64,000 bases of DNA, taken from an uncultured Pseudomonadota bacterium (GTDB lineage Bacteria > Pseudomonadota > Alphaproteobacteria > RF32 > CAG-239). The stretch covers positions 240,203-304,202 of the forward strand of contig CACWQS010000002.1 in assembly GCA_902763155.1 (NCBI GenBank), written 5' to 3'. A program made the position numbers. This document shows positions 28,201-31,200 of the stretch, in pieces (within the stretch, counting starts at the first letter, position 1; each line of letters begins with the position of its first letter).

Positions 28201-31200
28201 ACACAAGCTGATTTTTTCGGTAGAAACAGATGACAAAGTTGCCGATTTTGCCGTGCATGCTAATGGGCGTTATAAACATAATCCGCAAGATGTGGAAAAT
28301 AAATTGCGTGCCTCCGGTTATCGAAATATTACGATTACTCCTTTGGTGTTGCGCCGCGAAAACGGCATTGAAGTTCAGGGCGCAATTTTTATGGCAGAAT
28401 GATATTTATTTATTCAACAAGAAAGCGCGGATGCTTGCGTATAAAAGCTATAACAAGGGAAGCGGCAACAAGAATCAGGCTTATAGGATAATTACTGAAC
28501 AGATTTTCGATATACGACACATCATTTTTCCTCGATTGCCACAGGTATATAAAAAATCCCAACACATAAATATAAGGAATCCAACCTATTGATTTTAAAT
28601 AATATGTTAGAATGAGTTTCCCTTTTTTAAGTATCTGAATACTTTTAAATCCACAAATATCAAACACAATAAATATATCAAACAAGCGGCTTGAACAATA
28701 TAAATAATTGTTTCAAATCTAAAAAGCAGGCTATATTGCCACAAATATGTATCTAGATAAAACAATATTTCTGTTATTATTAAATTAAAACTGCCCAGTA
28801 ATAAAATTTCATCAGATGTTTTCAACATAGCCCAGCTCCGTAGTAATATTAACTATAAGTTATTTTCATCCTTTTACAAGGAAAAATCCTCTCTTGCTTA
28901 ACCGCCGCCGAGAACAATTCCATCGGGACAAGGTACACTAGATACTTCAATGCACTGTGAATGTTGAGATATTTTTCGAATATCCGGGTTAAATTTATAC
29001 ATTCCTATAAACAAACAACATGAAATAATAAACAATGATTTATTCCACTTATTTAGGGGTACTAAGATACAATACAAACAAGATATATAAAACAATACAC
29101 CAAATACGCCAAATATAAAAACAGATACATTGTTGGGATAATCACTGTGAGCCAAAGTAAAAACATCGATCAATGTCATTGCAACAAAAAACATTGGCAA
29201 AAGAAGTATTAGACCTCGTTTTGCACATCCTAATCCCCAGAAAAATATTTTTTTAAATTTAATTTGCATTTATAAACCTAGCATGTTGATACTTACAATA
29301 ATAAGTATCAACACACAAAAGTCAAATAAAATTAAAAAATATCGCCATAATCATCAGGATTTACGTATGCTTTGGGATTGGTAGGACAAGCCTCTTGCAA
29401 AGACAAACCTCTCTTAGCGCCATTCCACCCCATACTATTAGCATGCCAATCTTTACGCACATCGGATAAAGGTTCTCCTTTTGCAAGACCATATATTTCT
29501 CTACCGGTGCTTATTGCCTTACCAACTATTTCTCCCCATGGACCGCGTTTGGTTGCTTCATAATTTGCTTTACAATGAAAGAAATTATCTCCGCCTGTCC
29601 ATTTTTGATCTTCGGTCATGGTTTTATAATTTCGCCACATATCATGAAACGGAGCCGCTATCCCTGTATGTGTAATTCCCGGATAAGAATTATAGTTTTG
29701 CATATATTCATCAAGTTTTGCAGCAGTTTGTTGCCTCCAGTTAGGAGCTGTATATACCTCTTGCGGAACTAAATAATTATTTTGCTCCAGTCCGTGTCCG
29801 GTATTAAACAACGGCTGCTCATCAGGGATATCGGTAGTTTGCAAATCATTAAATGACGAAACATTCTGATTTGGATTGATAAAATAATATTGGCTTTCGC
29901 CGGCTTTAGGATTCTGCCGTTTTATCGGCGTTTGCCCATTAAAGATATTTTTGATATCTTGTCTTAAATTATTCATATTTTTTCTCCTAAAAATGCGAAA
30001 ACCGCACGGTTTTAAGGTGAGGTTTTCGGTGGTTAATAACAAAAAGAGTGCATTTCAAATACAGAAATACACTCTTATGATTTTTATAACATCTATGGCT
30101 CATAGCTATCAATTATTTTCTTATCATATTGTAGCATTTTTATTATTTATATCCCCCCCTTTTAATTTGACAATTAGTGCATATATCCTTTTGGGTTGAT
30201 AACAAAAAGGGGATATAACCAATGAAAAAGTATATGATATTAGGACTGGGTTTATTATATGCACTACCTGCGCAGGCTATGGATTTAGGTGCTGATTATA
30301 CTGCATTTAAAAATAAGCTGAACAACGATTACGGCTTTAGCTATAATCTTGACTATTCAATAATGCCGCAACGCACTTCGCCAAATGGGGAACACTATGC
30401 TTTTCAATCGCTGTTGGCGCCGTCAATCGCGTGGACAGCTTTTAATAATCGTTACGGAACCGGTGTTTTAAATGCCTCATATTACAGTGTTTATTATGGT
30501 AACAGCAATGCTAACGATATTCAGGGAAACTCCGGCATGGTAACACCGATTAACGATTATAGTTCAGATGAACAAGAATTTGCCGATTTGTATTTTACCT
30601 ATCAGGCTCCCGGGCGATATAATTGGCTGACTTTGGGTATCGGTCAATATAGCTTGTATAATTTTGACGGCACTGATTATAACAGCAATCAGCAGGTCAA
30701 TTTTATTAACTATGCTTTGTCGCAAAATGCCAGCGCTACTTATTCCGATGCCGGTTTGGGCGCATATATTCAAGCCGAACCGGGAAACTGGCAATTTATT
30801 GCCGGGTTTGCCGATGCTACCAACATTGAAGCGCCGAGCATTCGCTTTAATCACTTGAACGATAAACATTTTACCACCTTTGCGCAAATAGGCTACAATC
30901 CGGAAATTTGCGGTTTGGGCAAGGGACAATATTCGGTGATGTTTTATAATCAGCCGTATGTTATGGAACAACCGCAAACCACTAACGGTTGGTCGCTCAA
31001 TGCTCAGCAGAATATCGGCGAAAAGACGGCTCTGTTTGCTCGAATAAACGGTGTAACGGGGGAACAAGCGGTGGTAAATCAATCGTATGTTTTGGGCGGA
31101 GTATATAATAATCCGCTTGACCGCAATGAGTTGGACCAAATCGGCTTGGCTTACGCTTATGATAAAATCGATGCCGATGCGGTGGGAGAAAATTTATCTC

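Follow-up and report, generated by a model that had tools for sequence, protein, structure and literature searches.

Locus and annotation

The window analyzed is a 64,000-nt stretch of DNA (positions 240,203 to 304,202 of contig CACWQS010000002.1, assembly GCA_902763155.1) from an uncultured alphaproteobacterium. It contains a gene for a 214-aa protein whose C-terminal part is a bacterial homologue of serum amyloid A (SAA), followed on the same strand by a gene for a 123-aa membrane protein. The first gene is an unannotated member of the known prok-SAA family of polymorphic toxins, and the two together probably make up an orphan module of toxin and immunity gene, belonging to a polymorphic toxin system of an alphaproteobacterium from gut or rumen. 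The newer and more modest element is a module of about 61 residues at the N-terminus (N-module), which is associated with MuF phage-head proteins, itself contains no MuF domain, and has a pool of periplasm-acting C-terminal domains (cassettes) attached to it. The coordinates of all features are given in Table 1, where loci fetched for comparison are designated by L numbers.

Table 1. Features of the 64-kb window and of comparison loci. Positions are those of the window unless a locus is named.
Feature	Position	Strand	Basis
Toxin gene, 214 aa (putative N-terminal trafficking module, short linker, prok-SAA/Lipocone cassette)	29332..29976	-	ORF, Pfam SAA, PDB SAA3/SAA1, AF2 and Foldseek
N-module, codons 1-61 (MNNLRQDIKNIFNGQTPIKRQNPKAGESQYYFINP...LQTTDIPDEQPLFNTGHG)	29794..29976	-	Shared head of toxins with other cassettes
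SAA/Lipocone cassette, residues 65-214, opening at junction NNYLVPQEVYT	29335..29784	-	Family alignment
Pfam-matched SAA core	29413-29646	-	PF00277 match
Candidate cognate immunity protein, 123 aa, about three transmembrane helices	28898..29269	-	Transmembrane segments; linkage to SAA cassette
Palindrome/hairpin between toxin and immunity genes	29275..29323	-	Fold -22.9 kcal/mol, z=-6.7
Sigma-70-like promoter (TTGACT, 16 nt, TATTAT), overlapped by the hairpin	29298-29325	-	Promoter scan, 10/12 matches
5' leader with Shine-Dalgarno AGGAG (29984-29988), part of the region common with Tlde1 locus L038	29977..30044	-	
13-bp hairpin followed by U-run (terminator-like), immediately upstream of the shared leader	30044..30076	-	Fold -17.4 kcal/mol, z=-5.3; terminator scan
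Second small membrane ORF, 73 aa, two transmembrane segments	28607..28828	-	Gene called in L001-L003; transmembrane segments
91-aa ORF overlapping the 73-aa ORF	28410-28685	-	
AT-rich islet between TPR-methyltransferase gene and OprB porin gene	28403..30221	.	GC, GC3, flanking genes
Type-B N-terminal module (DSYGVDHSGFST.DELEYQ...NYPQYGTNFWG...NNYGFG)	L028 6001-6798; L032 4254-5099		
155-156-aa ORF	L028 5445-5915; L030 5444-5911; also L012, L022 (~9445-9905)		
Chromosomal Mx8-like virion module (g76, scaffold, capsid, g191, adaptor, g519, GNAT, virion protein)	L004 1-12400; L007 1-12400		
Tandem 154-aa paralogues (three)	L023 5534-6900		
Interrupted Tlde1 toxin gene	L038 196-891		
Type IVb-pilus/type II secretion system (T2SS)-like cluster	585-13604	-	
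T2SSE ATPase, then unannotated 534-aa ORF	585-2294 (ATPase)	-	
PAP_PilO	3856-5103	-	
Secretin	5126-6724	-	
TcpQ	6690-7412	-	
Four large ORFs without Pfam match	7456-13604	-	
Block of three proteins without family and VirD4/TraG-like coupling protein	19416-25771	+	

The toxin open reading frame (ORF) starts at the ATG at 29976, with AGGAG 7 nt upstream, and the same Met begins the homologues; because of this Shine-Dalgarno spacing and the shared Met, the product is taken to be the 214-aa protein and not a 236-aa form starting at TTG. The gene lies in an islet with a GC content of 0.25-0.39. GC at third codon positions (GC3) is 0.30 in the toxin gene and 0.24 and 0.26 in the two small ORFs encoding transmembrane (TM) proteins, compared with 0.38-0.45 in the flanking genes.

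The SAA cassette

Residues 111-188 of the toxin were matched by Pfam SAA (PF00277) with E=4e-17 and 62.9 bits, where the gathering cutoff is 30.8 bits. The match covers profile positions 12-89 of 102, with positions 1-11 unmatched. Searching the PDB with phmmer returned mouse SAA3 (3e-11) and human SAA1 (1e-10), both over 77 aligned residues, and identity to animal SAA is 31-33%. A sequence-only reading of this locus had proposed a bacterial SAA homologue from a protein core that is indeed encoded in the ORF, and the Pfam match confirms the homology, which also runs beyond the GNY...KRG core to the full 77 residues aligned to SAA3 and SAA1. Its description of SAA as lipocalin-like was mistaken, as SAA is a four-helix bundle. 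The same reading had suggested looking for a signal peptide in the N-terminal part; no signal peptide, TM segment or hydrophobic N-terminal segment was found in the protein.

The AlphaFold2 (AF2) model, made with 27 homologues as input, has a pLDDT of 76 and contains helices at residues 108-124, 129-142, 146-165 and 170-188, with additional short C-terminal helices at 193-213. Compared with the PDB using Foldseek, its sole significant matches were SAA1 and SAA3 (target TM-score 0.70-0.77, probability 1.0). As modelled, the protein thus has the four-helix bundle plus short extra C-terminal helix of the SAA/Lipocone fold.

The prok-SAA family was defined within the SAW clade of the Lipocone superfamily, and its authors regard it as the bacterial ancestor from which metazoan SAA arose, with acquisition by animals placed before the divergence of cnidarians (Burroughs, Nicastro and Aravind 2025, doi 10.1101/2025.01.14.632903). 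Its inferred active site consists of a His in helix H2, a Glu in H3, an Asp/Asn in H4 within the motif sNxxGR, and a capping Gly, and the family is predicted to cleave off or exchange head groups that are linked to lipids through phosphate; the sole characterized toxin of the superfamily is given as TelC, an enzyme that cuts lipid II. In that paper, prok-SAA is a polymorphic-toxin tip, with delivery listed as "T6SS, MuF" and immunity as "TM+[TM+TM+]Imm-SAA". Applying this active-site definition to the window protein gives H134, E160, D176/N180 and G183 as predicted catalytic residues. Across a 27-sequence family alignment, D130, H134, E160, D176 and G183 are invariant, and N180 is kept in most sequences, being Asp or Ile in a few.

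The closest full-length relatives of the protein are 89-90% identical and come from other samples, and the nearest beyond its clade, at 43-46% identity, are SAA cassettes from phages and bacteria. The relatives originate from metagenome-assembled genomes of gut and rumen Alphaproteobacteria (roe deer, goat, water buffalo and human-associated samples), and their source records label them "hypothetical protein" only. NCBIfam and PHROGs returned no match for the toxin or the small ORFs, and a tblastn search with the toxin found a single weak match among 50,697 annotated phages.

These relationships bear on a host origin, in which the gene would be a copy of an animal SAA serving in mimicry or in lipid or retinol binding. 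The organisms inhabit animal guts, and the protein shares its fold and 31-33% identity with vertebrate SAA. However, it has no signal peptide, its nearest relatives outside the clade are phage and bacterial and not animal, the divergence among bacterial domains is deep (identity falls to 29-36% in the family alignment), the gene has a toxin-immunity architecture, and Burroughs et al. infer transfer from bacteria to metazoa. A host-derived copy is therefore extremely unlikely, and the direction of transfer, judged from identity comparisons and the literature, would be from bacteria to animals. The host mimicry put forward in the sequence-only reading falls with it, given the polymorphic-toxin architecture with a co-varying immunity gene, the missing signal peptide, the unmatched SAA profile positions 1-11 and the published placement of the domain as a toxin tip. 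Its AT-rich islet with small membrane ORFs holds (GC3 0.24-0.30 against 0.38-0.45 for the flanks). The horizontal acquisition that it suggested is upheld insofar as the islet is compositionally foreign and mobile, and not as regards an animal source. Its proposal of lipid binding may be partly right, as the predicted substrate is a lipid head group, although as the target of an enzyme toxin.

At least three N-terminal modules that are unrelated to one another precede the SAA cassette, and in every case NNYLVPQEVYT is the conserved junction. One of them, the type-B module, is unrelated to the N-module, has no Pfam family and bears the same cassettes (SAA and GH108). In L032, an SAA cassette lacking its N-terminus lies, together with its immunity gene, displaced downstream of a type-B::GH108 toxin. 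As a separate observation, a 155-156-aa ORF without family occurs about 90 nt upstream of toxins whose N-terminal module is of type A' or type B. The chromosomal contexts are unrelated, and the ORF, which is missing from the window locus, could be a regulator or adaptor.

The candidate immunity gene

The 123-aa ORF directly follows the SAA cassette in the window and in L017, L028/29, L030/31 and L032/33, which is every examined locus of the clade. Across these five contexts, with three N-terminal types, it tracks the SAA cassette whatever the N-terminal module is. Its identity to the window copy in the four other loci is 76, 79, 75 and 52%, respectively, and that of the cassette is 84, 79, 81 and 65%. 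The protein has a conserved C-terminal tail (QHSxCIExSSVPCPDGIVLGGG) and no Pfam or NCBIfam family, and its three or so TM helices agree with the "TM+TM+TM" architecture published by Burroughs et al. Because it follows the SAA cassette and co-varies with it, it is likely the cognate immunity protein, and the best candidate for that role as judged from sequence. In L034, L035, L036 and L037, the SAA cassette is likewise followed by a TM protein, which there ends in C.D.GG.W..C; this motif is also present in a 75-aa ORF of L004.

The stem of the hairpin between toxin and immunity genes is kept with changed base pairs in L017, L028 and L030, and not in L032. It overlaps the promoter-like site, and its stem is conserved; therefore, the immunity gene may have its own regulated promoter, with the hairpin perhaps acting as an operator or RNA element that controls it. 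Further along the islet, the region of the 73-aa and 91-aa ORFs (28410-28828) has a GC content of 0.25, and no homologues of either ORF were found in any other fetched locus. The 73-aa ORF is possibly an orphan immunity gene or a remnant, perhaps frameshifted.

A constant N-terminal module with exchangeable cassettes

Among the homologues found with the toxin as query, some share just the first ~30% of it, at up to 98% identity, and have PF10908 (Tlde1) in place of SAA. Searched against 1.84 billion representative sequences, a profile of the N-module found 136 clusters, in which the module is always N-terminal, at residues 1-15. A Pfam scan of 94 full-length members gave the cassette counts: Phage_Mu_F (13 members), SAA (12), GH108 muramidase (10), Tlde1 (8), PG_binding_3 (4), VgrG3-like C-terminal domain (3), phage lysozyme (3), YkuD (3), NlpC/P60 (1) and Pesticin (1). 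Apart from MuF, nearly all of these families are cell-wall or envelope enzymes. AF2 models the N-module as a helix (residues 4-12) and short strands, with pLDDT 61-80.

The junction is visible at the DNA level in the Tlde1 locus L038, on a contig from the same metagenome sample, which is 93% identical to window positions 30044..29792. The homology takes in the 5' leader with its Shine-Dalgarno sequence and codons 1-61 and ends exactly at the module junction. Separately, the toxin gene of L038 is broken by an in-frame TAG at codon 54 and has two small ORFs downstream.

The N-module proteins thus combine a conserved N-terminal region with variable C-terminal toxin domains, the arrangement by which polymorphic toxins are recognized. 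Displaced cassettes and poly-immunity arrays are present in relatives (L032; L004, L007), with none in the window itself. A constant head with variable tails, a breakpoint at the junction and a displaced cassette are, in sequence terms, hallmarks of polymorphic toxins.

Association of the N-module with phage-head genes

In the 13 N-module proteins with Phage_Mu_F, the module is followed by a mini-MuF core (DYYIWRT.GDDKVR..H..REG.IFNW..PP.GGHPGEDYNCRC) and, behind it, by a wall-degrading enzyme. In the prophage of L026/27, an N-module::MuF::GH108 gene directly follows the portal gene and a GroES-like gene, and in the relatives L020, L023 and L026/27, the N-module gene is placed as MuF genes are, in the head-morphogenesis module beside portal or terminase. 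A profile built only from N-modules without MuF recovered the MuF-bearing proteins P0067 (E=1.3e-9) and P0071 (E=1.3e-7) among 5.8 billion sequences. The N-module has the same helix-plus-strands pattern in the AF2 models of both the window protein and an N-module::MuF::GH108 protein; in a fold search, the latter model matched GH108 structures only, so no solved structure was matched for the N-module.

N-module genes also lie inside virion modules of podophages resembling Mx8 and Brucella Tb (L004, L007 and L018-L025, including three IMG/VR contigs), where they are found among capsid, adaptor and nozzle genes. These modules encode a capsid protein (phrog_9953, E=9e-105), an SU10-type adaptor, a phrog_5107 protein, a GNAT protein and a virion structural protein. 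SAA cassettes were found among virion genes on four further IMG/VR contigs (L034-L037), including the published prok-SAA architectures PGBD::SAA (L034, L035) and MuF-like core::SAA (L037).

Some of these loci have features of their own. The virion module of L004 and L007 has no portal or terminase nearby. Interspersed among its genes are toxin/immunity pairs with the N-module and arrays of 3-5 membrane paralogues of 110-115 aa in tandem, and the module could represent either a prophage in decay or a particle that has been domesticated. In L023, the three tandem 154-aa paralogues have signal-peptide-like N-termini and follow a frameshifted post-portal N-module gene in a phage late operon, and they look like a poly-immunity array.

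Proposed delivery and mode of action

Phage-head delivery is suggested because the N-module heads post-portal mini-MuF proteins and sits inside virion gene modules. We tentatively propose, somewhat short of calling it probable and from genomic context, that the N-module is a phage-head trafficking signal and the window gene an orphan cargo gene. Capsids would take up the toxin and eject it into the target cell's envelope. There, by analogy with the cleavage of lipid II by TelC, the SAA domain would act in the periplasm and cut phosphate-linked head groups of envelope lipids or undecaprenyl-linked precursors, and the 123-aa membrane protein would, again by analogy, block the enzyme in the periplasm.

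In a further form of this proposal, which we consider doubtful, the N-module, as the detachable front of a mini-MuF head protein, would target capsid or portal autonomously and allow toxins to be loaded in trans. Toxins from scattered chromosomal loci would then be loaded into the heads of a resident Mx8-like podophage, or of a portal-less domesticated remnant such as that of L004/L007, and virions would serve to eject enzymes that act in the periplasm (SAA/Lipocone, Tlde1, muramidases) into rival cells.

Several results weigh against these proposals. The window protein gave no PF04233 match even at E<=10, and the MuF core motif DxRVRxxH...NCRC, which 13 N-module relatives have, is missing from it. 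Neither a virion module nor further N-module genes were found in the 64-kb window, nor does any phage, type VI secretion system (T6SS) or other dedicated apparatus adjoin the toxin there. Virion genes are absent within 10 kb of the N-module at 8 of 12 genome loci, and virome contig L009 has the same virion module without an N-module gene. Nor do the proposals account for a phage injecting a toxin into its own host. As to activity, the catalytic function of prok-SAA is a prediction from the family literature, made by analogy, and the window motif is ANSMGW, in which the final R of sNxxGR is replaced by W. The 123-aa protein was also tried as a member of the C.D.GG.W..C immunity group and rejected, its tail being unmatched (-0.7 bits). 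With neither a MuF core in the window protein nor phage genes in the window, phage-head delivery at this locus is extrapolated from the relatives.

The phage association can be read differently, with the N-module proteins as ordinary ejection proteins whose enzymatic tails aid DNA entry and the window gene as a stranded piece of a decayed prophage without a competitive role. This would account for genes embedded in virion modules and for the many cassettes that are muramidases or lysozymes typical of virion-associated hydrolases. It fits poorly with a window gene that is intact, has a strong Shine-Dalgarno sequence and is found at 89-90% identity in other samples, with its tightly co-varying membrane partner, with poly-immunity arrays and displaced cassettes, and with the Tlde1 and SAA/Lipocone domains, which are of toxin type and not wall-opening enzymes. 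We regard it as distinctly improbable.

Another view is that the protein is a diffusible bacteriocin resembling colicins, in which the hydrophilic N-module would be a region for outer-membrane receptor binding or translocation (TonB/Tol-box type) and the toxin, released by lysis of the cell or by a phage, would cross the outer membrane of the target by itself and act in the periplasm. Reading the N-terminus as a TonB box or as a double-glycine leader was considered only as part of this view. The small size and lack of a signal peptide agree with this, as do the orphan and chromosomal nature of most N-module loci, the promoter-like site of the immunity gene, as in colicin operons, and the nearly exclusive attachment to the N-module of periplasm- or cell-wall-acting cassettes, like those of colicin M and pesticin, one of them pesticin-like. 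Placement in a phage late operon would permit release at lysis. Against it, MuF proteins encoded at the canonical place after the portal begin with the N-module, the models show the N-module partly folded and not disordered, no lysis gene is present in the orphan loci, and no receptor-binding domain is evident. On balance, a colicin-like mode is unlikely, although it is a live competitor to phage-head delivery.

Neighboring features

The window also contains a type IVb-pilus/T2SS-like cluster and, between gyrB and rpsD, a block of three proteins (657, 161 and 448 aa) to which neither Pfam nor NCBIfam assigns a family and, after them, a VirD4/TraG-like coupling protein of 736 aa, the first ~400 residues of which are unannotated. 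No other type IV secretion system genes are nearby, and no signal ties either the pilus cluster or the VirD4-like gene to the toxin. Both were rejected as export routes, being not adjacent and having no matching signals.

More broadly, the toxin might be an effector of another secretion system, either a T6SS or the pilus/secretin cluster or VirD4-like protein of the window. Besides the presence of those genes, the T6SS is listed as a prok-SAA route in the literature, and two of the cassette types, Tlde1 and the VgrG3-like C-terminal domain, are classic components of T6SS effectors. However, the Pfam scan of the window protein found no PAAR, VgrG, Hcp, MIX or VirD4-binding domain, none of the examined loci showed T6SS genes, and the pilus and VirD4 genes lie 3.5-22 kb off with housekeeping genes between. 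Such a route is very unlikely.

Significance

The bacterial SAA of this locus is not a mimicry gene but a member of the toxin family proposed as the source of animal SAA, and a toxin origin affects how the antibacterial and lipid-related activities of animal SAA are read. The locus offers a compact pair for a first biochemical test of prok-SAA, with a cassette of 150 aa and a candidate membrane immunity protein of 123 aa. Through the N-module, cassettes that act in the periplasm are tied to MuF-type phage-head proteins in gut Alphaproteobacteria. Should the N-module be a packaging signal, phage heads would deliver envelope-targeting toxins, and orphan toxins encoded in the chromosome could use phage heads.

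Comparison with known systems

Vertebrate SAA (SAA1, SAA3; PDB 4ip8, 4q5g) has the same fold and a core that is 31-33% identical over ~77-100 residues. It differs in its secretion by a signal peptide, its N-terminal segment (profile positions 1-11) and its acute-phase, high-density lipoprotein and retinol biology, and it has neither N-module nor immunity gene. The literature assigns TelC/TipC of Streptococcus intermedius to the superfamily of the window protein; TelC works outside the cytoplasm and has a membrane- or periplasm-facing immunity protein, but it is of another Lipocone clade and is delivered by a type VII secretion system with LXG in a Gram-positive organism, the likeness being drawn through the literature and not from a sequence match.

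Colicin M, Cmi and pesticin-type bacteriocins are likewise small, have no signal peptide, hit lipid II or peptidoglycan from the periplasm and have membrane-anchored immunity, and a pesticin-like cassette occurs on the N-module. The comparison is by analogy, and the window protein differs from them in having no recognizable TonB box, receptor domain or lysis gene.

The closest system is prok-SAA itself, which the window protein resembles in its SAA match, four-helix bundle with short fifth helix, His, Glu and sNxxG positions, solubility, placement of the domain as a C-terminal tip and downstream TM immunity gene. Unlike the published prok-SAA proteins, it has no MuF, PAAR or PGBD and carries only the ~61-aa N-module, which is not described in the portions of that paper used here.

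MuF is a presumed capsid-targeting domain that would act through the portal, its gene is canonically placed directly after the portal gene, and the role of MuF toxins is not settled (PMC5576092; PMC11699363). The MuF polymorphic toxins (Jamet et al. 2017, PMC5576092; Apk2 and Bxa, PMC11699363) share with the window protein a constant N-terminus, a variable C-terminal toxin and small immunity ORFs, whereas the window protein has no PF04233 and no portal or terminase nearby. The characterized MuF toxins are cytoplasmic (nucleases, ADP-ribosyltransferase and (p)ppApp synthetase) and are found mainly in siphophages of Firmicutes; the cassettes described here are directed to the envelope or periplasm, are paired with membrane immunity proteins, and occur in Alphaproteobacteria with Mx8-like podophages. 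The proposed loading of N-module toxins into phage heads would be the phage-head counterpart of orphan T6SS effectors.

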